From NCBI GenBank assembly GCA_000004695.1, contig CM000150.2, forward strand, positions 1,920,001 to 1,984,000: a DNA stretch of 64,000 bases. Direction: 5' to 3'. How positions within the stretch are numbered: position 1 is the stretch's first letter; each line of letters opens with the position of its first letter. The position numbers and the translations under genes were made by a program. This DNA is from Dictyostelium discoideum. Lineage: Eukaryota. Positions 3,001 through 55,748 of the stretch are shown in pieces. The notes below the pieces were generated by a model that did no database searches, had not been told where the DNA came from, and saw nothing but the letters and a program-made list of their open reading frames with translations.

Positions 3001-4218
3001 GTTATTAAAAGTTTGAGATGGGAAGATTTAATTAGGGATGATTATCATAAGAATAGTCATCATTCTCTATTTGAAATATTTGCAAATTTTACAATGGTGG
3101 TATCGGAATCTGTAATTTACTATACAAAGGTTATTAAAGATTTAAGTTTATCTGCATTGGATCAAGCTGCTGATGATATTTTCAAATTATCTGAATCTTA
3201 TTCTCAAGGTTTAGAACAAACCATTCAAAAGGTGTCATTACGTTTTAATAATATTCAAGCTTGTATTGGTCATGCTGAAGATTTAATTCAAGTGTTGATT
3301 AGAATCATGTCATCATATAAACTTTCAACAACAATCGTCAATGAAATGGCAACAAATACCTACAAGGCAATTAGCGCCAATGTTAGGACATTGGTTGATA
3401 GGATCTATGATAGGCTATCACCTGTGATTCAAGGTGAAATCTATAAAATCATTGGTATAGAATTAGATGATGGAAAGAATAAAAATAACATTGTTTTGGA
3501 TTTCTTTCAAAAGATTGAAAAAGGCTTTGAAGATGTTAAAACTAAAACAAGTTCTGCTGTGGGTGCTGCTGTTGGTAATTCTGAACTATATTACCTAAAC
3601 CAAGATAAATTACCAATCACCGTCAGATTAGAACCACTATTGAATTATATTGCTTCAAAATTAAAATTATTCTCTCAATATCTTTATTATCCATTGACAA
3701 AGTTATTGTTGAAAAGATGTTTCTATGGAATAATGCACGAGATTGAAGTCATTGTTTTCCCATCAAATAAAAAGTTGGTGTTGACAATGAATCAATTGGA
3801 TAAAATTGAAGCATTAATTAAAACTTTTAGTGAATTCTTTTTGGTTGATGGTGAAGGTTTATCTCAAAAAGCAATCGATAAACAATCTCAGGGTTTCATG
3901 ATTATAGTTTTGGCTTACAGAGAGGCTCTCAATAGTGGTGTTCATGATTTCGATCCATTAGGTTTAAAAATGGCTTTAAGAAATATTAATTTTACAAACT
4001 TAAAACCAGATTTAACTTATTTAAAGAAATTAAATATCAATCTAAAAGAAATTCCAAAACAATTGGATGTTTTCTCTCTCATTAAGAAATCTGTAGAAAA
4101 AAGACAAGAAGATAAAAAGAAAAGAGATGAATTAAGAAAACAAAGAAAATTAAATAAGAGTATTGGTTATTTAAATGAAAATCAACAATCTCAGAAATTT
4201 GATCCACCACCAAATTAA
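1..4218 (+). CDS. C2 domain-containing protein, 5'-partial. The long helical C-terminal region may be Munc13/BAIAP3-like.
   Basis: Frame 1 is open from base 1 (SSSPSLNNLSHHNSHH...) through the ORF-track Met at 376 to the TAA at 4216-4218, so the gene begins left of the window. A C2-like block is present (GVIVIKVVSARDLIQKESQSIKPESFVEVEF...LNPIWKEHFSFQI...IELTIWD), followed by about 850 aa of low-Asn, helix-rich sequence. Assigning the C-terminal part to the Munc13-homology family is tentative. Confidence 0.65.
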   Translation, partial: SSSPSLNNLSHHNSHHLKKPSSILSSSSSSSPSLLPKNNNDNNNNNNNDGANKINNNNNNNNEENSGSGSGSSHSGNIPIVILKKTPLVKNGIELDFSGKASKEGIFSLWSNALEKKKLNYTSKEMSILIEPPDSSTFLINSPLLNSSANGSKIKSSTATTRQSQQPLAQQEENSTLFELTHHCIFFPINSNSLIIKKDIVTTMNYYFCQIIKESSTSIKIIIKTLFEVFGFYLDLARKLEEDENNDLSSNSNTNNANSSNSNKTMIYLINSLDKLIQDSLFTKFRDPTNEFQLSSIQRLFINILTDQLKSIKNQSMTSMIFNDCIQKFNFILSIVIEKVEQYKNSEIIKQSLRLDKYLEKTLFLKCKHLSSREYFLAQLKFRKFSIDYNQYYKSLTNFQQWKKQEELTIQKLSQQTLQRDEYLKTVWGINSSGGSSSSKNNKNFDNSPIGVIVIKVVSARDLIQKESQSIKPESFVEVEFISNSSKDFNKKKRTKKINSLNPIWKEHFSFQITKQQLNDEIELTIWDSSTSSSTSSSSSSSSSLSTDKFNFQGKCKFIVKDLMIYLKREVNWYPLQKRTSRSKVSGDLKLQFNYLPYPEASPDKVINYVYYLQILLDKLIEIDSNSNFNPINLNNDDLNNNGSSNSSGSSSGGNISPILKKQQQQQQQPIILSNQSNLLLKEFCERYGIMEHTLKLFYMKRLVVSTIKYLSLEYIPEIRLILKNTLEIKFGEIGLTQEEDEILKESVSALSQACKSWISHYHSVFPLNQPAGSLRMLIDIYYLLKNSELSILPPLQDLIKETYLNRYKQAIIMSNDIGKLNSSIIVPSVKLNQQQQQQQQQQKQEDIIDTKASKLIRICDILLYNLEIDKKYFSREFPNDSPILLISIEVYTNEISKEIDELLEKGSNSSNELQDFFQLYLKLKETMTKFKEIYPKLVLLPIPILFKQVIMQWTLFCADQLKQVIDRLCTNEKWTPVSSDTLHSASVGEVILGCYHALDVIKSLRWEDLIRDDYHKNSHHSLFEIFANFTMVVSESVIYYTKVIKDLSLSALDQAADDIFKLSESYSQGLEQTIQKVSLRFNNIQACIGHAEDLIQVLIRIMSSYKLSTTIVNEMATNTYKAISANVRTLVDRIYDRLSPVIQGEIYKIIGIELDDGKNKNNIVLDFFQKIEKGFEDVKTKTSSAVGAAVGNSELYYLNQDKLPITVRLEPLLNYIASKLKLFSQYLYYPLTKLLLKRCFYGIMHEIEVIVFPSNKKLVLTMNQLDKIEALIKTFSEFFLVDGEGLSQKAIDKQSQGFMIIVLAYREALNSGVHDFDPLGLKMALRNINFTNLKPDLTYLKKLNINLKEIPKQLDVFSLIKKSVEKRQEDKKKRDELRKQRKLNKSIGYLNENQQSQKFDPPPN

Positions 4219-30267: not shown

Positions 30268-30402
<135 letters not shown>

Positions 30403-30872
30403 TTACACTAATTTCTTAAAAAATTTTAAAAATTTTTTTTTTTTTTTGAATTGGATAACGCAATTATTATTTGCTTCTCCTTGAGATGCTAGATCTCATT
30501 TTATTTTATTTTTTTTTTTTTTTTTTTTACAGGGTCTCTAAAAGAGGGGTTAGTTTACTTTTTTTTTTTTTTTTTTTTTGTTTCGAATTTTGAATTGTAT
30601 TATTACTTTTGATTAAAACATCTTTTTTGTCCAAACTTTTTTCTAAATCTTTTTTTATTTTATCGTCTGGTTCGTGATTGATGTTTATGACGTATTTGAA
30701 TTGTTTTTTTTTTAATTGAGTTTTATCCACAATTTCGCTTATTTTTTGTAGGCATTTGTGTTGCTTAATATTTGTGGTGTTGTTTGTGATTTTCATTTTA
30801 TTTTCTTTCTATTTTTTATATTTTTCTTTAAAAAGTTAAAAATCTGGAAATTTTCTGATTAACTTGGGTTCC

Positions 30873-30931
<59 letters not shown>

Positions 30932-33900
30932 TTATTTATAGAAAGTACTGAGTGAATTATTGTATTTTTTGAGATGTTTAGGAAGTTCTATTGCGTGAAG
31001 AGGTGAGTTCCATTGTCTGCTAAATTGTAATAGCTTTAGCGAGATTAGTGAGTCTAATTTATTTTGTTCTTCTGGCCGTTGCTTTGATTTGATTCTTAAT
31101 GTTTTGTTTATAACCGCTTGTGTCCTGTCCCATGCAGCTCTTTGTGTTTTAATTAGTTCACGTATGACTTGTTGTCTGTGAATTATTATTTCTTTTTCAT
31201 CGTGAATGAGTTTATTTCTTTTGTGCCAGATTTTATCGAATATAATAGCTATTAAATTGGCTACTAGTGCAATTTGTAGATGGTTTAAAATCTTCACATT
31301 CCAGGTGTGAGTGGTGTGTCCACACTTAGTTAGGGTGTAGTTGAAGATTTCTTGTGTGTTTTTGATGTGGGCTTTGCAGTTGAAGAATATATGTTCTGAG
31401 GTCTCATCTTCCCCACACTGTTGGCATGGCATGTTGTATATTTTTGGTAGTGCTTTCAGTGTGTATCTCCATAATAGATCTCTACCTTTCATGTTTATTA
31501 TTTTTTTGATTTCTTTAAATGGAAGGTGTTTGCTATTAATTTTGGTCATTATTTCTTTTTGGCCAGGAGTTGGTATGAATTTGTTGTGTTCAGGAGATTG
31601 AGTTGTCATCATATCTTCGTATATTTTTTTTAATTTTGGGAGGTGTTCGTAGTGTGTTTGTTTATTTTGTGGAGTTTTTAATTGGGTCCATGCTTGCTTG
31701 CATTGCCAGTGTAGTTGTAGTTGATTTTGTTTTGTTGTTGTTTTGTTGTTGTTGTTGTTTTTGAGTTCCTCTTCCCACAGTTTTATATATGAACTAGGAG
31801 TGTTACTTACTCTTTGGTGGAGGTATCTTTCGAATAACCATGCTTTCTGTGCTAGTTCTCTTGTCTTCAGGTTCCATAAGTTTAGGCCACCATTGATATA
31901 GTTGTTTTGTCTTCTTTGTAGTGAAAGAGAGTTTTTAGATTTTGTGTTGAAAACGAATTTTACGATGTTATTTTCAATACTATTGTGTTGTGGTGTGGTG
32001 TTGATGTAAGTGTGGAACGTTAACTGAGATAGTGCATATGTTTTTGCCATTATGAGTCTGCCCATATAGGTTGATGAAGTTGAGTTCCATGTTACTAGTT
32101 TAGCTCTGATGTTGTCTGAGATTGTATTGATTTTGGATTTGATACCCTTATTGTTGAAGTCAAAGCCGAGGTACCTTTCGTTTGATTTTATGACGGTGTA
32201 TAGCGTTCTGGTGTTCCATTTGAAAGTGATACACGAGCATTTGGTTTGGTTTATTTTTGCGCTGGTTGCTTGGCAAAACTTCTTGATCCATTCATTCATG
32301 AGGAAATGGTCCATAAAGTTGTATGCTATTGTTGCTGTATCATCGGCGAACTGTAGTATTTTAATGGTTTCTTTGGTTACACCATTGATGCAGCGGTCAT
32401 TTATTATAGTAGTTGCCATGCATTCAACCACTAATGCGAAGATAGTGGGAGAGATAGGATCACCTTGTTTGGTTCCTCTTTTTGATGTAAAGCTTTTAGA
32501 TAATGAGTTATTGATGTACACTGATGTTTCTGATTCATTGAGTAAGTTCATTATTGTGAGGACCATTTTGAGTGGTAGTTTTAGATGTGCAAGAGTACGT
32601 AGAATGGCGTTATGTGAGATTGAATCGAATGCTTTTTCAAAATCATAAAATGTTATGATTGGTTCCATATCCTCTTTTGTGTTAATCTCTCGTTTTATTA
32701 TTTCTATTGTTGAGTTTAAGGTGATGATGTTATCGTGCAGTAGTCTTCTTGGTACGAATCCAGTTTGGAATGGTGAGATTATTTTGTTTAAGAACTTCAG
32801 GATCCTATTGTTGATTATTTTCGAATAGATTTTGTAATCGACATTTAGAAGTGTTATTGGTCTATAGTTATCCAGGTTGTTTGGGTCTCCTTTGTTTTTA
32901 TATATAGTAATCAATATCCCTTGTTTGAAGTCCTTTGGGATTGTTGTATTCCAGAAGTGATTGTATAGTTTTGATATTATTGGTAGAATTTCATTAATGT
33001 GGTTTTTGTAAAATGTTGGAAGGAGTCCATCTTTACCAGGTGCTTTTCCTTCTTGTATTTTTTCAATGCCTAGTCTGATTTCGTATTCTTCTATTGGTTG
33101 ATTAATTTCGTCCAATATCTTTTGATCAATCCTTTTATTGAATGTTTTTAGGAGTTCGTGGTGAGTGTCTTCGTTGCATTCTCTCTTCTGGTACAGGTTC
33201 TCGTAATATCTTCTTGCTACTTCGAGGATATCCTCGTTTTTTGTTACCAAACAATTGTTGCTTGGATCTAGAATTTGAGGGATTTCATTTGTCTTTCTTT
33301 GGACTTTTAACCTTCTGGTTAAGTATTTTGATGGTGTTTCTTTGTTGTTGATGTGGGTGTTGGTTTGGTTTGCTTGTTTTATTCTTACTTGTTCCTTTAG
33401 AATATTGTTGATCTCTTCTTTAAGGAAGATTGCTCTTGAATCTTTGGCTGTTTCGAGTTTTTCTGCGAGTTCTTTTAGTTTGTTTTTGGTTTTATTGCTT
33501 TCTCTAATTTCTATATTAATTGACAGTTTCTTTATTTCATCTTTTAGTTTCAACCATTGTTCGCAAATGTTTAATTTGTACCATTTGCTGGTGTTCTCTT
33601 CGAATTTTTTATTGTAGTATTTAATTGTTTTATTAATTTTGAGGCTGGTTGAATTCATTTTGAGAGTTTCTAGGTTTTGTCTCCATAGTCTTTCTCCTTT
33701 CTTTTGTTGCTCGTATTCTGGTATTTTTAATTCAATGATTACCATGTTGTGATCAGATTTTAATTTGATTTCCTTAGTAGTAACTATTGGGTTTAGATGG
33801 AGTATCTTCTTTGAGACAAAGACCCTATCGATGGTTGATTTGTTTCTTGGAAATGTGATTCCATTCTTAATTTCTGTAAATTCGAATTCGTCGAAGATTG

Positions 33901-34153
33901 TTTTAATATATTTGTTAAGGTTATTATCCACTGAACAGTCTACATTGAAGTCTCCAGTTATAATATCGCTGTGTAGTATTTCTTCTGTGAGATTTTCCTT
34001 ATACCATTCATGTCTTTCGTTTGACTTTGCTGGGGCATAAATGGTTGTGCATTTGATCTGTGTTTTTGCAATCATCCATTCGGAAGATATAATTCTTTCG
34101 TTTATTGTTTTTGTTGTTGTTTTTATTTGGGTGTTGATGATGATTTGTGACAC
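30932..34153 (-). CDS. TRE5-A ORF2: apurinic-type endonuclease plus reverse transcriptase.
   Basis: ORF track, 1073 aa. The endonuclease region is ...GDFNVDCSVD...KSDHNMV. The RT motifs are YRPITLLNVDYKIYSKII and FADDTAT. The reading frame is intact. Confidence 0.85.
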   Translation of the reverse strand: MSQIIINTQIKTTTKTINERIISSEWMIAKTQIKCTTIYAPAKSNERHEWYKENLTEEILHSDIITGDFNVDCSVDNNLNKYIKTIFDEFEFTEIKNGITFPRNKSTIDRVFVSKKILHLNPIVTTKEIKLKSDHNMVIIELKIPEYEQQKKGERLWRQNLETLKMNSTSLKINKTIKYYNKKFEENTSKWYKLNICEQWLKLKDEIKKLSINIEIRESNKTKNKLKELAEKLETAKDSRAIFLKEEINNILKEQVRIKQANQTNTHINNKETPSKYLTRRLKVQRKTNEIPQILDPSNNCLVTKNEDILEVARRYYENLYQKRECNEDTHHELLKTFNKRIDQKILDEINQPIEEYEIRLGIEKIQEGKAPGKDGLLPTFYKNHINEILPIISKLYNHFWNTTIPKDFKQGILITIYKNKGDPNNLDNYRPITLLNVDYKIYSKIINNRILKFLNKIISPFQTGFVPRRLLHDNIITLNSTIEIIKREINTKEDMEPIITFYDFEKAFDSISHNAILRTLAHLKLPLKMVLTIMNLLNESETSVYINNSLSKSFTSKRGTKQGDPISPTIFALVVECMATTIINDRCINGVTKETIKILQFADDTATIAYNFMDHFLMNEWIKKFCQATSAKINQTKCSCITFKWNTRTLYTVIKSNERYLGFDFNNKGIKSKINTISDNIRAKLVTWNSTSSTYMGRLIMAKTYALSQLTFHTYINTTPQHNSIENNIVKFVFNTKSKNSLSLQRRQNNYINGGLNLWNLKTRELAQKAWLFERYLHQRVSNTPSSYIKLWEEELKNNNNNKTTTKQNQLQLHWQCKQAWTQLKTPQNKQTHYEHLPKLKKIYEDMMTTQSPEHNKFIPTPGQKEIMTKINSKHLPFKEIKKIINMKGRDLLWRYTLKALPKIYNMPCQQCGEDETSEHIFFNCKAHIKNTQEIFNYTLTKCGHTTHTWNVKILNHLQIALVANLIAIIFDKIWHKRNKLIHDEKEIIIHRQQVIRELIKTQRAAWDRTQAVINKTLRIKSKQRPEEQNKLDSLISLKLLQFSRQWNSPLHAIELPKHLKKYNNSLSTFYK

Positions 34154-34365
34154 CCCTTGTCCTGTTTTATCAATTGGTGCGTGGTGTGTTATTTTGTTTT
34201 TATATTGTTGATTTATTGAGTAAATTTTATTTGTTTTTATATTTGTTTCAGTTAGAAGTGCTGCGTCCAGCTTGTTGTTGTCTAATACGGTGTTTATTAT
34301 GCTGGCAGATTGGATGGTGTTGGATCCTTGGACGTTCCAAACACCTATTCTTATTGTGTTTTTCT

Positions 34366-35700
34366 TTATAGTTTTATTTGGGGTAGATTTTTATCTACCT
34401 TTTGAAGTTTCTGGTTTATTTTGTCTTCTAACTGATCTTTACTTTGTTCGTTGTGTTGTTGGTCTTGTGTGTTTGTGGGGTTTTTTGATTTACTGATTTG
34501 TTTTAGAATTTCCTTGTTGAAGTTGTCTATATCTTCATCCATTTTTGTTTTTATGCTTTTTTGTCCATATTCACCCAATTTTGGTTTGACTGGTGTTTTG
34601 TTGGTCCTGTTTGTTTTGTCTTGTTGTTTGTTTTTTGGTGTGTTTAACAATTTACTTGGTGAATCGATAATTTTCGATGGTGTACCATAGGTTGGGCTGA
34701 AACTCATGATATGTTTTATTGGAGAGGAGAAGAACCATTGATTTGAAGGGATTGAAAGTGGGAATTCTATTTTTCTTATTGCATCAGTGTTTGGGCTGGT
34801 GAAGTCGAAGATATCATTTACCTCTCTAAGTTTTTCTTCCGTTGTTAGTCTCTTTGTTTCGCCGTGTTGTTTTATTGGTGTATTGTATGGAGATGGTGGT
34901 TCAATAGGTTTTTCTGATTTTGTTTTAATTTCTTGATTGTTTATCGATTGGGTATTGATCTCATTCTCTATTCTTGTTAGTTCATCTACGTTTTCTAGTG
35001 ATGCATCTATTACCTTTTGAGCTGTATCATCTAGGGCCATAAATGTTTTATCATTAGATGAGGAGGTGATTGGTGGGATAATGATTGTTCTTTTTCCTTG
35101 TTTTGGTATTTGTTCTGATGTAGATTGTGGTTGTTGTTCATCTGATTGTTTTTTATTTTTGTTTTCTTCTTGATTTTCTGGTAATGAGGTTTGATCTCTC
35201 CATCCTTTGTTGGAGTGACCAATTAATGTTAGATTGTCTAGTTCAATGATAGTATCATATTCTTCTACGACTCTTTTCACTGTTTTGATAATTAGAGTTT
35301 CGCCTTTAATTTCAGATTTAATTAGTTTACATCCTTCATTTTCTATTACCCATTCTATTTCTGTGAGTGATTTATACCAATCGAAATCCGTATACATATT
35401 TTTTGGTCTTAGAGTGGTTATAAATTGTCCTTTTAATTCTGCATCGAACATATTTACAAAATAGATTACTGTACTAATACTGTCTGTGAGAATTTTGAAT
35501 GTATTATTACTTTTGATTAAAACATCTTTTTTGTCCAAACTTTTTTCTAAATCTTTTTTTATTTTATCGTCTGGTTCGTGATTGATGTTTATGACGTATT
35601 TGAATTGTTTTTTTTTTAATTGAGTTTTATCCACAATTTCGCTTATTTTTTGTAGGCATTTGTGTTGCTTAATATTTGTGGTGTTGTTTGTGATTTTCAT
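34366..35700 (-). CDS. TRE5-A ORF1 (444 aa).
   Basis: ORF track. The N-terminal 67 aa are duplicated in the 3' B-module copy (ORF 30527-30796). Confidence 0.8.
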   Translation of the reverse strand: MKITNNTTNIKQHKCLQKISEIVDKTQLKKKQFKYVININHEPDDKIKKDLEKSLDKKDVLIKSNNTFKILTDSISTVIYFVNMFDAELKGQFITTLRPKNMYTDFDWYKSLTEIEWVIENEGCKLIKSEIKGETLIIKTVKRVVEEYDTIIELDNLTLIGHSNKGWRDQTSLPENQEENKNKKQSDEQQPQSTSEQIPKQGKRTIIIPPITSSSNDKTFMALDDTAQKVIDASLENVDELTRIENEINTQSINNQEIKTKSEKPIEPPSPYNTPIKQHGETKRLTTEEKLREVNDIFDFTSPNTDAIRKIEFPLSIPSNQWFFSSPIKHIMSFSPTYGTPSKIIDSPSKLLNTPKNKQQDKTNRTNKTPVKPKLGEYGQKSIKTKMDEDIDNFNKEILKQISKSKNPTNTQDQQHNEQSKDQLEDKINQKLQKVDKNLPQIKL

Positions 35701-35775
35701 TTTATTTTCTTTCTATTTTTTATATTTTTCTTTAAAAAGTTAAAAATCTGGAAATTTTCTGATTAACTTGGTTCC

Positions 35776-35830
<55 letters not shown>

Positions 35831-35833
<3 letters not shown>

Positions 35834-36700
35834 TCTTTTTTATATGAAAAATGAAATAATCAAAAAAAGAGATTGTTGTTGTTGTTTGTTTTTTTTCGAT
35901 CTGATTATTTTTTGCTTTTTTTTGAAAATTTTGCTACGCAAAATTCTCAAAACGAAACAAATAATAAATTACAATAAAGTAAAAAGATGGCTTTTTAAGA
36001 TAGTTTATTTATTTATTTATTTGTTTTTTAAGTCTTTTTTATATGAAAAATGAAATAATCAAAAAAAGAGATTGTTGTTGTTGTTTGTTTTTTTTCGATC
36101 TGATTATTTTTTGCTTTTTTTTGAAAATTTTGCTACGCAAAATTCTCAAAACGAAACAAATAATAAATTACAATAAAGTAAAAAGATGGCTTTTTAAGAT
36201 AGTTTATTTATTTATTTATTTGTTTTTTAAGTCTTTTTTATATGAAAAATGAAATAATCAAAAAAAGAGATTGTTGTTGTTGTTTGTTTTTTTTCGATCT
36301 GATTATTTTTTGCTTTTTTTTGAAAATTTTGCTACGCAAAATTCTCAAAACGAAACAAATAATAAATTACAATAAAGTAAAAAGATGGCTTTTTAAGATA
36401 GTTTATTTATTTATTTATTTGTTTTTTAAGTCTTTTTTATATGAAAAATGAAATAATCAAAAAAAGAGATTGTTGTTGTTGTTTGTTTTTTTTCGATCTG
36501 ATTATTTTTTGCTTTTTTTTGAAAATTTTGCTACGCAAAATTCTCAAAACGAAACAAATAATAAATTACAATAAAGTAAAAAGATGGCTTTTTAAGATAG
36601 TTTATTTATTTATTTATTTGTTTTTTAAGTCTTTTTTATATGAAAAATGAAATAATCAAAAAAAGAGATTGTTGTTGTTGTTTGTTTTTTTTCGATCTTA
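35831..36700 (-). repeat. Tandem array of 199-bp A-modules (promoter module of TRE5-A): four complete identical copies plus a ~70-bp partial copy.
   Basis: ORF-track entries at 35844, 36043, 36242 and 36441 give identical 69-aa translations at exactly 199-bp spacing. The pattern ends at ...ttttttttcgatctta (36698), 49-51 bp before the tRNA. Confidence 0.85.
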
Positions 36701-36749
36701 AAAATTTTAAAAATGGATAGGAGCAAAAAAACGAAATTTCATCAAAAAT

Positions 36750-36822
36750 GCCTGGATGGCTCAGTAGGCAGAGCGAGCGGCTGTTAACCGCTAGGTCCAT
36801 GGTTCGATCCCATGTCTAGGCG
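36750..36822 (+). tRNA. tRNA-Asn (anticodon GTT), copy 1.
   Basis: The sequence GCCTGGATGGCTCAGTAGGCAGAGCGAGCGGCTGTTAACCGCTAGGTCCATGGTTCGATCCCATGTCTAGGCG folds as a cloverleaf. The acceptor stem is GCCTGGA/TCTAGGC. The anticodon stem is AGCGG/CCGCT with loop CTGTTAA. The T-arm is CATGG-TTCGATC-CCATG. It has an internal B box and no intron. Confidence 0.9.
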
Positions 36823-36850
36823 AATTTTTATACTTCCCTTCATATGTCAC

Positions 36851-37161: not shown

Positions 37162-38072
37162 TTATGCTAATCTTTCAATAATATGAACACCTGAATCAGT
37201 ATCTACAATGCCACTAACTTCACCAACTTTTAAAGAAAATCTAAAGTTTTAAAATAATAATAAAGTATATTAATAATTAATTTATTATTATTAAAAATGA
37301 TTTTGATAATCAATGTTAATTTTATGATTATTGAAAAAACTTACGCGCAATCTTCAAAAGGTCTTTGCATTTGGCCTCTTTTGAATGGATCAAGATAGCC
37401 ACCTCTTTTAGCACTGCTACAATCTGAATTTTTATGAGCTAAATCTTCAAATGTGGCAGAACCAGATATAATTGTTGCTCTATATTCATTAAGTTTAGCG
37501 ATTGCTCTTTCTTTGGTTCTTGTAATTTTAGATTCCCTCCAAGATGATGGATTTCTTGAACCTTGATGTTTAACTAAAAGATGACGGCAAGTGACTGTTT
37601 TTGGTTCTGATGATGATGATGATGATGATGATGAAGAAGATGATGGATTTGTATTTACAGTGCCTTTTAATATAAAATGTTTTGATGATGAACCAAATTT
37701 AAAAGTGAAGTTTTCTTTAACAGTTGTTGGAGTTAATGGTTTAACTTGTTCATCATTAACTTGAGTGCCAGTTGCAGATTGTAAATCAATTAAATAGAAT
37801 CTATTATTTGCACCATGATATACCAATGCAGCATGTCTTCTTGATACTGATGGATGATCTAATAAAACTGACGCAACTTCACTACTTCTACCAAATACTG
37901 TGAATTTATCTTTACTAATATCAACTCTATCTATATTCACACCATTCTTTATAATCTCTAAATAAACATTTGATATTGGTTTTGATGCCCATTCTGGACA
38001 TTTAAATGGTGGTATTGGTTCATTTTCATCTTCTCTAATTTCATTATTATTATTATTATTATTATCGCCCAT
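37162..38072 (-). CDS. FHA-domain plus parvulin (Pin1-type) peptidyl-prolyl cis-trans isomerase. CDS complement(join(37162..37240,37345..38072)).
   Basis: The FHA core is FTVFGRSSEVASVLLDHPSVSRRHAALVY...FYLIDLQSATGTQVN. The PPIase region is [105 protein letters not shown], which aligns to human PIN1 [105 protein letters not shown]. A 104-nt intron runs from GTAAGT to TTTAG with a phase-2 junction. Confidence 0.8.
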
Positions 38073-38534: not shown

Positions 38535-39583
38535 ATGATTGAAAAAACAATGACAAATATTAGTGATGAATGGGTTAGTTTAAATGTTGGGGGTAAGATT
38601 TTTGATACAACTATATCAACATTAACCATTTGTAAAGATTCAGTATTATATAAAATGTTTAAGAGAGAAGACTCTGATAGTTTTACAATGGATTTGGGTA
38701 AACCACAAATTCAAGCCTCAAGAAAAGATAAGAATGGTGCCTATTTAATTGACAGAGATCCAATTTATTTTAGATGTATTTTAAATTATTTAAGAACTCA
38801 ACCAACCAATGCAAAAGATTTAATAATTGATGATAATGTATCATTAAAAGGAATAAGAGAAGAAGCAAATTTTTTTCAATTGGATCATTTGGTTGATTTA
38901 ATTAATACACTTTTAACAAGGGTATCGGATTTCACTAGAAAAGATATACTACTCAATAGACAATCAATTAAATTGACAAAGAGGAAACTATATGATTTGG
39001 ATCTACAAGGCATCGATTTCCAAAAGGAGAATTTCAGCTATAGTATCATTTCAAATTGTAATTTCAATGGCTCACAAGTTAGCAAATCCCATTTCTTGCA
39101 TGTGGTGGGCGACAATTGTACTTTCATTAAAGCATCTGTTGACAATACCAATTTCTCAAGTTCCGATTTATGTGGTTCAAATTTTACTGATTCCGATTTG
39201 GGTCATTCAAGTTTCAATAATTGTAATCTCATTGGGTCAATATTTGACCAATCCAATTGTGTTGGTGCTCTATTTCAACGTGCTATCATTAAGAATGCCT
39301 CATTTAAGAATTCAAATCTCGAGCATGCAAAATTCCAAAAGGCAATCCTAAAGAATAGTGATTTCACAAATGCTCAAATTCAAAATTGTCATTTCACCTC
39401 TGCCGATATTCGTGGTTGTAAATTCGATTGGAAAAATATCTCTTTTGGTCTCTTTAAGAAAGCAAAAGTCACTCAACAACAATATGATGATATACCTCTC
39501 TCAAATAAACATTTATTAGGTTTTAAAATTATTGATAGTCAAGAATATATTGAAAAAATGAATAGAAAAAATAAAAATAATAA

Positions 39584-39614
<31 letters not shown>

Positions 39615-39668
39615 AATGAACAAATTAATAATAATAATAACAATAATTCTGTAAATTTAAATAATAAA

Positions 39669-39712
<44 letters not shown>

Positions 39713-39726
39713 ACAAATAAACAATA

Positions 39727-39757
<31 letters not shown>

Positions 39758-39767
39758 TGAACAAATA

Positions 39768-39802
<35 letters not shown>

Positions 39803-39881
39803 TAGTAATAATAATAATAGTAATAGTAATAATAACAATAGTAATAATAATAATGAACAAATAAATAATAATGAACAAATA

Positions 39882-39944
<63 letters not shown>

Positions 39945-39956
39945 TCTATAAATTTA

Positions 39957-39989
<33 letters not shown>

Positions 39990-40037
39990 TCTGTAAATTT
40001 AAATAATAATAATAATAAAGATATTATAAATAATTAG
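38535..40037 (+). CDS. KCTD9-like protein: BTB/T1 domain plus pentapeptide repeats, with a ~170-aa poly-Asn tail.
   Basis: The BTB region is VSLNVGGKIFDTTISTLTICKDSVLYKMF...YLIDRDPIYFRCILNYLRTQ. The pentapeptide-repeat region is NCNFNGSQVSKSHFLHVVGDNCTFIKASVDNTNFSSSDLCGSNFTDSDLGHSSFNNCNLIGSIFDQSNCVGALFQRAIIKNASFKNSNLEHAKFQKAILKNSDFTNAQIQNCHFTSADIRGCKF. Confidence 0.75.
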
Positions 40038-49829: not shown

Positions 49830-50454
49830 AAAAAAAAAACTGAAAAAAACAAAATCAAAATCAATTTTGATTAAAACAAAAAAAAAAAAAAAAAAAAAAA
49901 AAGATAAGAAAGGATTAAAAATTTACTTTTAATTATTTAATAGTAAAACTATGGACTTTTTTTTTTTTATTATGTATTATTATAAATAAAAAAAAATAAT
50001 AGATAAACCCTTCTTTATTTATTATATATATATATATATAAAATATATATAAATATATATTTCATATAATTCAAATACAACTTGAAATTTTCAATCATTT
50101 ATTTATTTATTTGTCACTCTTTTTCTTTTAATTCTTGTATTTTTTTTTTTTCTTTTGCTTTGTGATTAAATAATTTTAAATATTGATTTATTAATATTAT
50201 TATTATTCCAATTCAAAAAAAAAAAATTAATATTATTATTATTTCTTGATTATTTTTCCAAAAAAAAATTATATATAATTTTGCTCAAAACAATTGGATT
50301 TATCTTTTTTTTAAAAAGAACAATAAAAATCCAAGTATAATTTTTAGCTATTTTCAATTTTTAAAATAAATAATTCCTGGAAAGAGATTTTGGTAATTTG
50401 AAAAACAATGAAAAAAAGGGAGAGGAGCAAAAAAAATGAAAATTCATCAAAAAT

Positions 50455-50527
50455 GCCTGGATGGCTCAGTAGGCAGAGCGAGCGGCTGTTAACCGCTAGG
50501 TCCATGGTTCGATCCCATGTCTAGGCG
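50455..50527 (+). tRNA. tRNA-Asn (anticodon GTT), copy 2. It is identical to copy 1.
   Basis: A 73/73 nt match to 36750-36822. The ~35 bp immediately upstream are also similar (aggagcaaaaaaa.gaaa.ttcatcaaaaatg). Confidence 0.9.
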
Positions 50528-50716
50528 ATATTTTTTTTAAGGTTTTTCCATTTAAAAAACAAAAAAAAAAAACCGAAAAAACAAAGAAATAAACGAGAAT
50601 TTATACATATAATAAATAAATCACTGTTATATCTTCACCGCCACATTCATTCCTCTTAATTTTACCCTTTTTTTGCTCAGTAAAGCAAGGGCTATCGTCC
50701 TATATACTTTTCAACA

Positions 50717-51925
50717 ATGGCTGATGATCACTCAACTGAATTACAGTTAAATCATACAGATAACAACACAACCAATACAAATAATACCTCCACAACCTCA
50801 ACAACAAAAAACAAAAGTGCAAAAATCGACACACCTAAAAAACAAACCCCAACAAACCAACTCTCACTAAACAAAGGACTTGATAATCAATTAGATATCA
50901 TTGCACCTCCATCAATCACAAGACCACTCTCTTTCTTAGAAAAAAACAATAACACCATCAACATTAAGTGTTACTTTAATCAACCACACATCCGTGAAGA
51001 ATTAACCTCAAAAGATGACACAAGAATTCAACAAATTCACAAAAACATTCACAAACTCTTCGAAGATATACTGTCGCCATCAGCATTCAAAATAATTGGT
51101 GCAACTGCCTTCGTAAATTGCAACGTTGATAAATTAACTTCAATAATCAACCTTCAAAACCAACTTGCACTAAATATCGACAAACTCAACTATAGATTCG
51201 ATATATCATCAAATGATTATGCAATCATTAAAACATTCATTAAAACGTACTCACCCAAACATGCAAACGATGCAATTACAAACAACCTCACTAAATTCAC
51301 CAGTTGTACATCAATTGAATCATTTACTGTCACATACTCATATGCTGTTGCGTTGAAAAGCTACATTATAACATATCATCTAATTGATCACACACACAAC
51401 ATTGTTGATCAAAAGATCGAACAACCATCTGGTATCACAAGATATATCAAAGCTGCAACACGTAGTGTCACTAAACACAAAATTCAACATGCAAAAAATG
51501 CAGATATGGCAACAACTATAAAAAATGCCATCACAAACCCAAACATGAACAAAAACAATCAACCACCAAAAAACAACATTAACACCCCACCAATCAACGA
51601 AATTGCAAATTCCAACCGCAATAATAACTCACTTCAAAATAGTGGTTCAAAAGCTATACTAAATGAATCACTTGATATTAACAATCAATCCCAAAACAAT
51701 AATGAAATTTCACACAAAAGTGATTCTTCAAATAATAATAACGGGAAAAACTCATTATCAATAAGCAATCCAACCGATCCAACAATTGTACCACAAAAAC
51801 CTCTACAATCTCAACCAAACAAACCAAGTGCACCAACTCCAAATCCAATAAATACAAGAAGAAGCAGCAATGCCCTGACTACACAACCAGTCAATACTGG
51901 TGCTGCCAAACCTAGTAAGGTATGA
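50717..51925 (+). CDS. TRE3 ORF1 (402 aa).
   Basis: ORF track. Its stop overlaps the ORF2 start (gtATGAgc). Confidence 0.75.
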   Translation: MADDHSTELQLNHTDNNTTNTNNTSTTSTTKNKSAKIDTPKKQTPTNQLSLNKGLDNQLDIIAPPSITRPLSFLEKNNNTINIKCYFNQPHIREELTSKDDTRIQQIHKNIHKLFEDILSPSAFKIIGATAFVNCNVDKLTSIINLQNQLALNIDKLNYRFDISSNDYAIIKTFIKTYSPKHANDAITNNLTKFTSCTSIESFTVTYSYAVALKSYIITYHLIDHTHNIVDQKIEQPSGITRYIKAATRSVTKHKIQHAKNADMATTIKNAITNPNMNKNNQPPKNNINTPPINEIANSNRNNNSLQNSGSKAILNESLDINNQSQNNNEISHKSDSSNNNNGKNSLSISNPTDPTIVPQKPLQSQPNKPSAPTPNPINTRRSSNALTTQPVNTGAAKPSKV

Positions 51926-52731
51926 GCTCAAAAATCAACTTTATAACATGGAATTGTAGAGGATTCACTGAAAACCCAAACAATCAACACAATTCCTACC
52001 AAAAAGCTGTTGACACACTACAACTACTTATATCAAAACTTCCACCTCGTCCAACAATCTCAATACTCACTGAACTCAATTCATCACCATTACAACTTAA
52101 ACATGATTTTCCCGATCACATCATCTCTGTCACCAAACGAGGAAATGGTGTAATCATCATTAACCATAACCCAAACACACTCAAACTCAAACACATATCA
52201 ACAATTGATGGTAGAGCTATTTTAGCAGACGTTATATTTCCAAATCAATTACCAATTGGTATTCTTGGAATTTACGCACCAGCATCAAATAATACCATCA
52301 AAAAGAATTCATATGCAACTTCACTACAAACACTTCTCCACAACCACTCAACAAACCCAATACCAAACCAATCCCAACATGTATCTATTATCGCAGGAGA
52401 TTTCAACTGTATCCACGACGACAATTCACTATTAGACGATATTATCCAATCCTACACATACCAACACCATCTAATTGATCAAGGTGAATTTAAAAACACT
52501 CCAACTCATACACATGGCAACAGATTAGATAGAATATATACTCAATACAATAGAATAGACCCTGAAAATATATATACACAAGTCCACCAAATTCCATCTT
52601 CATTATCAGATCATAATCCAATATCAACAACAATTTCTTCACCTTTTCAAATAAATAAACATAAGAAAAGATGGATATTATACCTGGTACTGCAAATGAC
52701 CATGAAGCAATCAATATTATCAATCATTTAA
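51922..52731 (+). CDS. TRE3 ORF2, endonuclease (APE-like) part.
   Basis: ORF track: ITWNCRGF...GDFNCIHDDNS...LSDHNPI. The 3' end overlaps the RT ORF in a different frame. Confidence 0.7.
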   Translation: MSSKINFITWNCRGFTENPNNQHNSYQKAVDTLQLLISKLPPRPTISILTELNSSPLQLKHDFPDHIISVTKRGNGVIIINHNPNTLKLKHISTIDGRAILADVIFPNQLPIGILGIYAPASNNTIKKNSYATSLQTLLHNHSTNPIPNQSQHVSIIAGDFNCIHDDNSLLDDIIQSYTYQHHLIDQGEFKNTPTHTHGNRLDRIYTQYNRIDPENIYTQVHQIPSSLSDHNPISTTISSPFQINKHKKRWILYLVLQMTMKQSILSII

Positions 52732-55700
52732 TAACTAATCACAATAACACATCAATCAATCAATTTACAAACTGGTCAAAAGTAAAATCAAAAATTATTA
52801 AAACTCTAAAAAACTATCAATATAACAAAGACAAACAAACTCAACGTGCAAAACAAATACTATTAGAAAAAGCAGCAAAATTCAAACATCTTGAAGAACA
52901 ATGCATCGCTGAATACAATATTATATGTAACAAAAACAAATTACATCAAAACCACACAAACATATTAAAAAAACATATAAATGGAGAAATACCTAGCAAG
53001 TATCTATCAGCAATACTAAACAAAAGATCAAAAGATGCAAAAATTGAATCAATCCAATATGGTAACATAATTACATCCGACCCCGACCAAATTGAAAATG
53101 CGTTTGTTGAATTCTACACAAATCTATATAGCTTACAAATATGTTGTCCAATTACTCACCAGCTCATGCTAAACACATGGCCCATCATAAAAAATGAATA
53201 TTGGAATGGTTTAGACTCACCATTTATACAAGATGAAGTTGAAGCTGCAATTAAAACCTGTAACCCCAACAAATCACCCGGTCCAGATGGCGTTACAAAT
53301 GCATTCTACATTAATCATTTAAACCAAGTTAAACCAATTCTCACTACATTATTCAACGATATACTAGAAAATCCTCACCACATCACAACAGAATTCACAG
53401 AAGGTCTTATACACACAATATACAAGAAAGGCAACCCCTTACTCATATCAAATCGTCGTCCCATTACACTTCTAAACACTGATTACAAGATCCTCTCAAA
53501 AGTAATCAATGCACGTCTTCTGAGAATACTTCCTTTCATCATCAACAACAACCAAACTGGTTTCGTACCCCACAGATTCATCATAGACAACATCATCAAC
53601 ATCAATGAATTAATCAACTACCTCAAATCTAAAAACCTCCCTGGTATCATCACACTATTTGACTTCTTTAAAGCATTTGATTCTATCTCTCACGATAGCA
53701 TTAAAAGAACATTAATTCATATTGGTATACCAATAAAATTAATAAATTTAATCCACAAGCTATTATCTGACTCACAAGCAAAAATTTCAATTAATGGTAA
53801 AACGACCAGAAAATTCGATATTAAAAGAGGTGTAAAACAAGGTGACCCAATCTCAGCCACTTTATTTGTAATTGTAATTGAAATATTAGCAAGAACAATA
53901 AATGCAGACAATTCAATAATTGGATTACCAATTTCACCCAATCCACAAATTAAAATCAAATTTACCCAATTTGCAGACGACTCTACAACATACAACATCA
54001 ACTACGAACAACAACAACAATCAATCAAACATTTCGATAATTTCTGCGCTTCAACATCATCATCTTTAAATTTTGACAAAAGTGCAATAATAGAAATCAA
54101 CCCCCACAAAATCACTGATAAACACATAATAAACAACATTCCACAATCAAAAAGAATTCCAATAACCAAAAAAGATCAATCAGAAAGAGTTCTTGGCTAT
54201 TTCTTTAATCATAATGGTTTACATAGGAAATTTCCAGAAACAATGAAAACACTGATTAAATCATTAGTGCTATGGAAAACTAGTGGCACAACATTAAAAA
54301 CAAAAACAACCATCATAAACACCTACTCACTATCACCAATAACATATTTATCATACCTTGAAGAATTTACAAAAGATGAAGAAATTCAAATTAATAAATT
54401 AATCTCATGGTTTATGAATTCTCCCGCAAATTCTGAATCACCAACTCTCGATACCAATTCCATTGAAAACAACACATCAACCATCCATTCACGTGCAAAA
54501 ATACCTTTGATGTGTTATGATAGATCATTAAAACCATTAAAAGAAGGAGGTTGGGGTATGTGGAATATCCAATTACGACAAGTTGCTCAAAAGATTTGGA
54601 TATACAACAGATTTTTACAAATGCATAAATCTGCAAACAATTCAATATACATGATAAGTTGGATGGATCAAATCATCAACAAATCAATCTCTTCTCCATA
54701 CCTTATAAAAATAAAAAAAGAATGGGAAAACTATGCAACTCAAATTGGACATCTAAAAGATAAAGTTCAAATCCTACAACCAATATTAACAAAAAACCAA
54801 CCCTCTCAAACATTAAACACAAATAATATTTCACTACCACCAACACTCAAAGAAATCTACTCGACAATACTAAACAATCACCAATGCAAATCAAAAGACT
54901 ATATTGGCAAGAAATATTCAGATCTACTTCTTACTTCGCACCAACAATCAATACAACTATTATGGAAATACACATACGACCAACTTTTTGTCAAAATTCA
55001 AAAATTAAAAGATCCAAAAGGCCGAGATACAATGCAAAGATTCCATGCTAGATGTCTTCCGATTAATCATCTACACAACAAAGTTTGCCCCATTTGCAAC
55101 AATGAAATGAATAATGATCCCTATGGTCATTTGTTTTTCAATTGTCAGCACACAATCAACTTCATTAACCACGACAAATTAAAATATTTTATATATAAAA
55201 ATTGCAATGGAAACAAAAACTGGTCACTAACAAAAAACCAAACAACAAAATTATACACACTCATTTATAAACCACAAACAAACAACAAAGCATTTAAACC
55301 AGATCCAACTATCAATATTAATTTTCATTTTGCAGAAAACGCACAATATAAAAAATACAGGTTCAACTGGAATTATATAAACACAAATCTTGATCTAGTC
55401 AGAACACATGCATATTGGAACATAATCTCATTAGTTATTCACCAAATATGGATATGGTTATGCAAATCATTATTTGACATCAATATAACTCAATCAATTG
55501 ACAATTGGAACAACCAAATAAACAACACAACACTAGATTATGATATATTAAAATCAAAATGGCACAAGCTAATAAGATTGGAATATTCAAGAAGGTTATC
55601 AAACTTTAACCAATTCTCAATTAAAAACAACCTCACAAAAACTCAAAAAGAAACCCAATGGTCCGAAACCATCAAAAAATTTAAAAAAGAATGGAGCATA

Positions 55701-55748
55701 AACACTAATGAACCAATTCCAACAATTACACCACCAATTAATTATTAA
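52671..55748 (+). CDS. TRE3 ORF2, reverse-transcriptase part (1025 aa).
   Basis: ORF track. The RT and zinc-knuckle motifs are as listed for the TRE3 mobile element at 50554-55876. Confidence 0.75.
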   Translation: MDIIPGTANDHEAINIINHLITNHNNTSINQFTNWSKVKSKIIKTLKNYQYNKDKQTQRAKQILLEKAAKFKHLEEQCIAEYNIICNKNKLHQNHTNILKKHINGEIPSKYLSAILNKRSKDAKIESIQYGNIITSDPDQIENAFVEFYTNLYSLQICCPITHQLMLNTWPIIKNEYWNGLDSPFIQDEVEAAIKTCNPNKSPGPDGVTNAFYINHLNQVKPILTTLFNDILENPHHITTEFTEGLIHTIYKKGNPLLISNRRPITLLNTDYKILSKVINARLLRILPFIINNNQTGFVPHRFIIDNIININELINYLKSKNLPGIITLFDFFKAFDSISHDSIKRTLIHIGIPIKLINLIHKLLSDSQAKISINGKTTRKFDIKRGVKQGDPISATLFVIVIEILARTINADNSIIGLPISPNPQIKIKFTQFADDSTTYNINYEQQQQSIKHFDNFCASTSSSLNFDKSAIIEINPHKITDKHIINNIPQSKRIPITKKDQSERVLGYFFNHNGLHRKFPETMKTLIKSLVLWKTSGTTLKTKTTIINTYSLSPITYLSYLEEFTKDEEIQINKLISWFMNSPANSESPTLDTNSIENNTSTIHSRAKIPLMCYDRSLKPLKEGGWGMWNIQLRQVAQKIWIYNRFLQMHKSANNSIYMISWMDQIINKSISSPYLIKIKKEWENYATQIGHLKDKVQILQPILTKNQPSQTLNTNNISLPPTLKEIYSTILNNHQCKSKDYIGKKYSDLLLTSHQQSIQLLWKYTYDQLFVKIQKLKDPKGRDTMQRFHARCLPINHLHNKVCPICNNEMNNDPYGHLFFNCQHTINFINHDKLKYFIYKNCNGNKNWSLTKNQTTKLYTLIYKPQTNNKAFKPDPTININFHFAENAQYKKYRFNWNYINTNLDLVRTHAYWNIISLVIHQIWIWLCKSLFDINITQSIDNWNNQINNTTLDYDILKSKWHKLIRLEYSRRLSNFNQFSIKNNLTKTQKETQWSETIKKFKKEWSINTNEPIPTITPPINY

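Follow-up and report, generated by a model that had tools for sequence, protein, structure and literature searches.

TRE5-A is a retrotransposon of Dictyostelium discoideum that is active in laboratory strains (PMC5391098) and integrates about 47 ± 3 nucleotides (nt) upstream of transfer RNA (tRNA) genes in an orientation-specific manner (PMC5391098, PMC3159450); a range of 37-211 nt has also been published. Its A-module can be exchanged for a heterologous promoter (PMC3159450), and PMC3159450 and PMC5633606, both citing Schumann et al. 1994, present this module as the RNA polymerase II (Pol II) promoter for plus-strand RNA. According to a review, the activity of the A-module promoter is raised by an upstream tRNA gene (PMC5911963). 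The B-module of 290 base pairs (bp) supplies the start of the first open reading frame (ORF1) and is repeated in the 3′ untranslated region (UTR), a 3′ copy that is absent in TRE5-B and TRE5-C, and retrotransposition requires the hairpins that lie in the last ~54 nt of the C-module of 134-137 bp (PMC3159450). Expression of the second frame, ORF2, which overlaps ORF1, needs a -1 frameshift (PMC5911963); the published ORF2 product comprises endonuclease, reverse transcriptase and zinc finger, and the published account describes TRE5-A ORF1 as lacking similarity to other ORF1 proteins. Here we describe a 64,000-nt stretch of D. discoideum DNA (hereafter the window, to whose positions all coordinates refer unless another sequence is named). 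It very probably contains one canonical full-length TRE5-A.1 (formerly DRE) with the variable A-module array that is standard for the family, inserted upstream of a tRNA-Asn gene at a distance of 50 nt. The useful new fact is that the array counts 4 units here and 19 at the orthologous insertion in another assembly, which reflects either a collapsed repeat or a rapid change in the length of a promoter array.

The element occupies 30434-36698 on the minus strand (6265 nt), with both ends set by a target-site duplication of 16-17 nt, ATTTTTAAAATTTTT[T]A, that brackets array and element together. The 15-nt exact core of the duplication is found at two sites only in the window, 36714-36700 and 30433-30419. 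With this duplication and a tail of 14-15 A, the hallmarks of target-primed reverse transcription are present. The tRNA-Asn(GUU) gene is transcribed away from the element, giving a head-to-head arrangement, and the 50-nt spacer between them (36699-36748), which holds the 5′ copy of the duplication, falls within both of the distance ranges published for TRE5-A. The reading that the array lies outside the element, for example as a separate repeat beside a 5′-truncated copy, was rejected, since the duplication encloses array and element and since the outer end of the array sits at the canonical tRNA distance in 17 other loci too.

Tandem Repeats Finder (TRF) reports a period of 199 bp with 4.5 copies and 99% matches at 35805-36698. 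The exact period-199 run covers 35825-36698, that is 874 nt or 4.39 units. On the minus strand the complete units (36698-36500, 36499-36301, 36300-36102 and 36101-35903) are the same at all 199 positions, the first of them beginning at its own nucleotide 1 (AGATCG...), and each unit gives a BLAST E value of 4e-102, far beyond chance. No further copy of the A-module or of other TRE5-A parts was found elsewhere in the 64-kb window, where the matches of a C-module query are A-tract noise. The features are collected in Table 1.

Table 1. Features of the element assigned to TRE5-A.1 and of its integration target. L023 is the orthologous insertion in assembly GCA_054883475.1.
Feature	Position	Strand	Remarks
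tRNA-Asn(GUU) gene, integration target	36749-36823	+	ARAGORN; Rfam RF00005, 64.3 bits
Target-site duplication, 5′ copy, ATTTTTAAAATTTTTA	36699-36714	-	inside the 50-nt spacer
Four complete A-modules, 199 bp each	35903-36698	-	0 mismatches among units; TRF
Fifth A-module, incomplete (unit nt 1-72), with the last letters ...TATAAAAAAGACTT	35831-35902	-	72 nt, runs into A51
A51 tract separating the A region from the 5′ B-module	35780-35830	-	40 A at the orthologous locus L023
5′ B-module, 290 nt, contains the ORF1 start codon	35490-35779	-	aligned to the 3′ B-module
ORF1, 444 amino acids, intact	34366-35700	-	ATG at 35700, 80 nt into the B-module
Open frame of ORF2, 1152 codons and a stop, 3459 nt	30932-34390	-	-1 frame relative to ORF1, 25-nt overlap
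A53 tract past the ORF2 stop, ahead of the 3′ B-module	30877-30929	-	37 A in L023
3′ B-module, 292 nt, duplicate of the 5′ B-module	30585-30876	-	aligned to the 5′ B-module
C-module, 137 nt, 3′-terminal hairpins	30448-30584	-	same length as published (137 bp)
Terminal oligo(A), 14-15 nt	30434-30447	-	sequence
Target-site duplication, 3′ copy, ATTTTTAAAATTTTTTA	30417-30433	-	one T more than the 5′ copy

When the two B-modules are aligned, two 1-nt indels are the sole differences between them. In the C-module, the four bases given in the legend of Fig. 5 of PMC3159450 (T15, C26, A35 and C38, with numbering from the 3′ end) all agree, and the predicted fold has an energy of -13.5 kcal/mol (z = -3.67) with two or three stems in the last ~50 nt. 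Both B-modules are immediately preceded by long pure A tracts, of 51 and 53 nt. The partial A unit with an A tract behind it looks like a polyadenylated fragment, and may be a hint at the origin of the modular ends.

ORF1 is identical to the sequence P0010, which at least four D. discoideum AX4 proteins share (EAL67844.1, EAL68868.1, EAL70570.1 and EAL70891.1). No Pfam domain was found in it, in agreement with the literature on TRE5-A ORF1, and a homologue search returned Dictyostelium proteins only among the matches listed. An endonuclease-like N-terminus (IRIGVWNVQG...) begins the ORF2 frame, in which the domain order is endonuclease, reverse transcriptase (Pfam RVT_1, 2.9e-33) and zinc-finger region. 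Its first methionine lies at 34075, with an open frame upstream that contains no ATG, and the full ORF2 frame depends on a -1 frameshift. A mechanical list of open reading frames starts ORF2 at a GTG codon at 34153, 212 nt past the ORF1 stop, as if ORF2 were damaged; this was rejected, as the frame is open from 34390. Read from the first methionine (1047 amino acids), ORF2 has exact counterparts in at least nine annotated genes of GCA_054883475.1. This is an independent assembly, which we tentatively take to be the one made from Nanopore and Illumina data of strain AX2-214 (PMC12745789). The ORF2 genes of that assembly are annotated from the first methionine and so lose the first 105 codons, among them those for the N-terminal portion of the endonuclease region.

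A preliminary description of this DNA had read the locus as a complete TRE5-A beside tRNA-Asn with its 5′ end facing the gene, and the modules, the duplication and the distance of ~50 nt bear this out for TRE5-A.1. All the parts that it listed (intact ORF1 and ORF2, a duplicated B-module, a C-module and oligo(A)) were found, as were its four identical 199-bp units and partial fifth, with 0 mismatches and in line with TRF; its identification of the 199-bp unit as the A-module, with a promoter role, agrees with PMC3159450. The gap to the tRNA gene, given there as about 49 bp, is close to the 50 nt measured, but the 3′ end lies at 30434 and not at 30500, a position 66 nt off and inside the C-module.

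To place the array within its family, we collected 28 loci around TRE5-A ORF1/ORF2 genes in GCA_054883475.1, mapped the window modules onto them and, after removal of overlaps, retained 13 full-length TRE5-A.1 copies and 10 copies of TRE5-A.2. The window element matches the 13 full-length copies at >99%. These carry 2, 1, 3, 10, 3, 36, 7, 1, 19, 10, 1, 2 and 3 A-units (median 3), with two or more units in 10 of the 13 and more than four in 5, while the TRE5-A.2 copies carry 8, 2, 2, 1, 1, 21, 8, 0, 1 and 1. The unit number n thus spans 0-36 across all 23 copies, and arrays of at least two units form the majority. The same partial unit and A tract stand before the B-module in every copy with any A-module (all but one of the 23), and the standard 5′ layout of TRE5-A is (A)n, partial A, oligo(A), B. 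Both the family and its variable feature are already known, and a 5′ end with several A-modules is said to have been part of the original description; the 1992 abstract of Marschalek and colleagues (Mol Cell Biol 12:229) reportedly describes a tRNA-proximal repeat, AnB, with 'one or multiple A modules' ahead of one B module.

Between the tRNA gene and the array there are 44-57 nt (median 48; 17 loci) for all values of n from 1 to 36. First units elsewhere mostly begin at unit nt 1, and otherwise at nt 6, 6, 6, 7, 16, 22 and 58. Among the full units of the TRE5-A.1 copies, 91 of 94 are identical to the window unit, and the remaining three, which differ only by a length of 200 nt, are probably homopolymer errors; in TRE5-A.2, 36 of 39 full units (six loci) are identical to one another. 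The units of the window array are no more alike than are units of copies on separate chromosomes, and unit identity reflects a young, homogeneous family and not an event at the window locus. With 91 of 94 units alike across the genome, identity inside the window array therefore cannot date that array.

These observations bear on the idea that the promoter module was amplified very recently at this particular locus, making the copy unusually active or specially tied to the gene transcribed by RNA polymerase III (Pol III). The perfect identity of the units would agree with such an event, as would the promoter role of the A-module and the reported boost from a tRNA gene upstream of it (PMC5911963); if mouse L1 is a guide (PMC9022269, PMC6454616), more monomers could also make the promoter stronger or more robust. 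However, arrays are usual in the family, five of the 13 other full-length copies exceed the count of the window, unit identity is family-wide, tRNA distance and orientation are constant for 1 to 36 units, and the unit count is not reproduced at the orthologous insertion. We regard local amplification as very improbable. The preliminary description had considered an amplified array a notable configuration, had read the perfect identity of its units as very recent amplification or homogenisation, and had found the promoter abutting a Pol III gene notable as well. The first proves to be the normal family layout, the second is shared by units genome-wide, and the third is the canonical integration geometry, which has already been studied (PMC5911963).

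The longest arrays in GCA_054883475.1 are one of 36 units in a full-length element (L017, 2643-9809), which at 7.2 kb exceeds the element body, and one of 21 units in a TRE5-A.2 copy (L006, 5628-9808). Three TRE5-A.1 loci (L015-L017, L026 and L027/L028) hold two or three ORF1-ORF2 bodies joined head-to-tail via shared B-modules. The first of these, on CM142511.1 at about 3.02-3.05 Mb, consists of 36 A units, B, three ORF1-ORF2-B bodies and C, and the other two are dimers. Their structure suggests unequal recombination or template switching between 5′ and 3′ B-modules.

A look-up of ORF2, taken from the first methionine, led to the orthologue of the window insertion, L023 (JBTAPE010000039.1:3017414-3040557); exact look-ups of ORF1, of the cluster representative P0001 and of two flanking open reading frames gave no match. 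The tRNA-Asn gene, the 50-nt spacer, the junction sequences and the duplication are all alike in L023 and the window. Over 5454 nt of element body there are 2 mismatches and 3 homopolymer gaps. About 14 kb of flank shows 2 mismatches as well as indels, so that the source of the L023 assembly and that of the window are near-isogenic. The L023 array, in contrast, comprises 19 perfect units and a partial unit, against 4 and a partial unit in the window. Retrotransposition cannot alter n at an orthologous insertion, and therefore either the window array was collapsed or n changed in the DNA after the lineages split. The preliminary count of 4.4 copies is correct for the window sequence and fails in the independent assembly; it is not a dependable property of the window locus. 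The disagreement is of the sort that the preliminary description had in view when it named an assembly artefact as a possibility. Both mismatches in the body alter ORF1 residues (Q192K and N254K; 34366-35700 in the window, 8376-9710 in L023), and both variants are seen in other copies; a cross-copy consensus in the assembly or gene conversion is possible.

If the count of four units results from assembly collapse, the strain of the window truly carries a much longer array, of about 19 units or 3.8 kb, and short reads were merged to the shortest tiling. We give this explanation about an even chance of being correct. It accounts for 19 perfect units at the same insertion in a long-read assembly from a near-isogenic source. 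Units that are 100% identical leave an assembler nothing to count by, and the 874-nt array would be roughly what one or two reads of Sanger length, held in place by unique sequence at the sides, could tile. On the other hand, a single deletion could also take 19 units to 4, and the long-read assembly is itself fallible, as 3 of the 94 TRE5-A.1 units there are 200 nt long. The argument is a comparison of assemblies in which the sequencing technology behind the window is assumed.

The difference between 4 and 19 units may instead be real, the array having grown or shrunk in one laboratory lineage after insertion by unequal sister-chromatid exchange, intrachromatid deletion or replication slippage, so that the A region would be a hypervariable minisatellite. 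This is a serious possibility that we place somewhat short of an even chance. The identical junctions and duplication point to one insertion by descent, n ranges from 0 to 36 among near-identical copies, and the body multimers joined by B-modules show that repeat-mediated rearrangement occurs in TRE5-A. The internal A tracts also differ between the assemblies (51 and 53 nt in the window, 40 and 37 in L023), although homopolymer differences are typical of sequencing-platform artefacts. The differences in n among separate insertions could date from retrotransposition, and the present data fit assembly collapse equally.

Arrays could also be built during retrotransposition, if the reverse transcriptase, on reaching the 5′ end of the RNA, switched to a homologous A unit, partial or full, on the same or another template and thereby added units to the complementary DNA (cDNA). 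Each element that bears an A-module has a direct repeat, a full and a 72-nt partial unit, able to support such jumps. Some first units are 5′-truncated (from nt 6, 7, 16, 22 or 58) while internal ones are complete, which would suggest that arrays passed through or were completed around integration. The truncated-then-complete pattern could equally come from unequal recombination after integration, however, and template switching offers no explanation for differing n at one orthologous insertion. For TRE5-A it is a proposal that we consider unlikely.

The element very probably arrived through target-primed reverse transcription, at a point upstream of tRNA-Asn and 50 nt away from it, in the fixed head-to-head orientation of the family. 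An RNA starting at the first unit would carry the entire array into daughter copies, and n would then drift through unequal recombination or slippage between the identical units. The starts of the first units, mostly at nt 1 and in a few cases later, give the pattern of full-length or slightly 5′-truncated cDNAs. It is possible, if somewhat doubtful, that the A array is a hypervariable promoter minisatellite whose length shifts at a fixed insertion on laboratory timescales, and that the promoter dosage of TRE5-A.1 master copies drifts fast. If so, drifting promoter dosage could decide which TRE5-A.1 copies drive ongoing retrotransposition in laboratory strains.

Several points weigh against our assignment and its interpretation. 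The name TRE5-A is absent from the database records retrieved, in which the proteins are hypothetical, and we take the name from published descriptions and not from alignment to a deposited consensus. In ORF2, the matches to Exo_endo_phos (amino acids 18-195, E = 0.021) and zf-RVT (amino acids 951-1007, E = 0.039) stand in the expected order, but both fall under the curated Pfam cut-offs, so that these domains are weakly shown. For the promoter role of the A-module and the (A)nB layout we rely partly on papers that cite the original work. The promoter reading of the array itself, including start sites and any n-dependent strength, goes no further than its sequence, and the mechanism that changes n is an inferred one.

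TRE5-A is the best-studied Dictyostelium retrotransposon, and the discovery value of the locus is small. Counts of 199-bp units in the window sequence should not be trusted, which matters for any use of this copy as a model full-length TRE5-A.1. Should the length difference prove genuine, promoter dosage would vary with an A array that changes quickly, in parallel to the monomers of mouse L1.

An (AAT)43 microsatellite (30272-30401) starts 15 nt past the 3′ target-site duplication. On the other side of the element, an open reading frame at 37341-38072 has a parvulin/Pin1-like C-terminal motif and ends abruptly; it is probably an exon followed by an intron. The flanking gene at 38535-40037 encodes a protein that has BTB and pentapeptide repeats and a poly-Asn tail of great length, and a homologue search with it in a large protein database gave other dictyostelids and no D. 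discoideum entry among the matches listed. On the plus strand, 50454-50528 is a second tRNA-Asn(GTT) gene. Another retroelement without long terminal repeats (non-LTR) starts roughly 100-190 nt downstream of it on the same strand, a placement that fits a TRE3-type element. It has open reading frames at 50717-51925 (402 amino acids, no Pfam match), 51922-52731 (269 amino acids, Exo_endo_phos 2.8e-14) and 52671-55748 (1025 amino acids, RVT_1 1.3e-30). The placement of endonuclease and reverse transcriptase in separate overlapping frames may be due to a frameshift or to damage.

Compared with described systems, the window element shares with TRE5-A.1 the order AB-ORF1/ORF2-BC and the module lengths, 199, 290, 292 and 137 nt against the published 200, 290 and 137 (PMC3159450). 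It also shares the ORF1 start in the B-module, the -1 position of ORF2, the oligo(A), the target-site duplication and the fixed orientation ~50 nt from a tRNA gene. Nothing substantial sets them apart, although the open-access descriptions show one 200-bp A-module and mention neither the terminal partial unit of 72 nt nor the long A tracts in front of the two B-modules. TRE5-A.2, a non-autonomous deletion derivative, shares A, B, ORF1 and C parts as well as tRNA targeting, and has A arrays of 0-21 units. In contrast to the window element, it keeps only nt 1-262 and 3396-3459 of ORF2 and has lost part of the B/C junction, and its A unit is a variant that is 98.5% identical to the window unit. 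The window element has a full ORF2 and is thus TRE5-A.1 and not TRE5-A.2. TRE5-B and TRE5-C are related elements that also target the region upstream of tRNA genes, but they lack the 3′ B-module (PMC3159450) that the window element carries at 30585-30876.

By analogy, the A array may work like the promoter monomer arrays of mouse L1, which would be its nearest functional analogue. Mouse L1 monomers are ~200 bp long and form an internal Pol II promoter, with an incomplete monomer usually at the 5′ end. The 5′ UTR arrays of L1Md A, Tf and Gf are described as tandem promoter units of variable copy number in a non-LTR retrotransposon, and monomer duplication is thought to preserve the promoter despite truncation-prone retrotransposition (PMC9022269, PMC6454616). 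Host and sequences are unrelated, so that the likeness is one of analogy and not of membership. The L1Md array joins ORF1 through a non-repeated tether (PMC9022269). In TRE5-A, by contrast with mouse L1, it is the first unit that is usually complete and the last that is truncated, followed by a long A tract.

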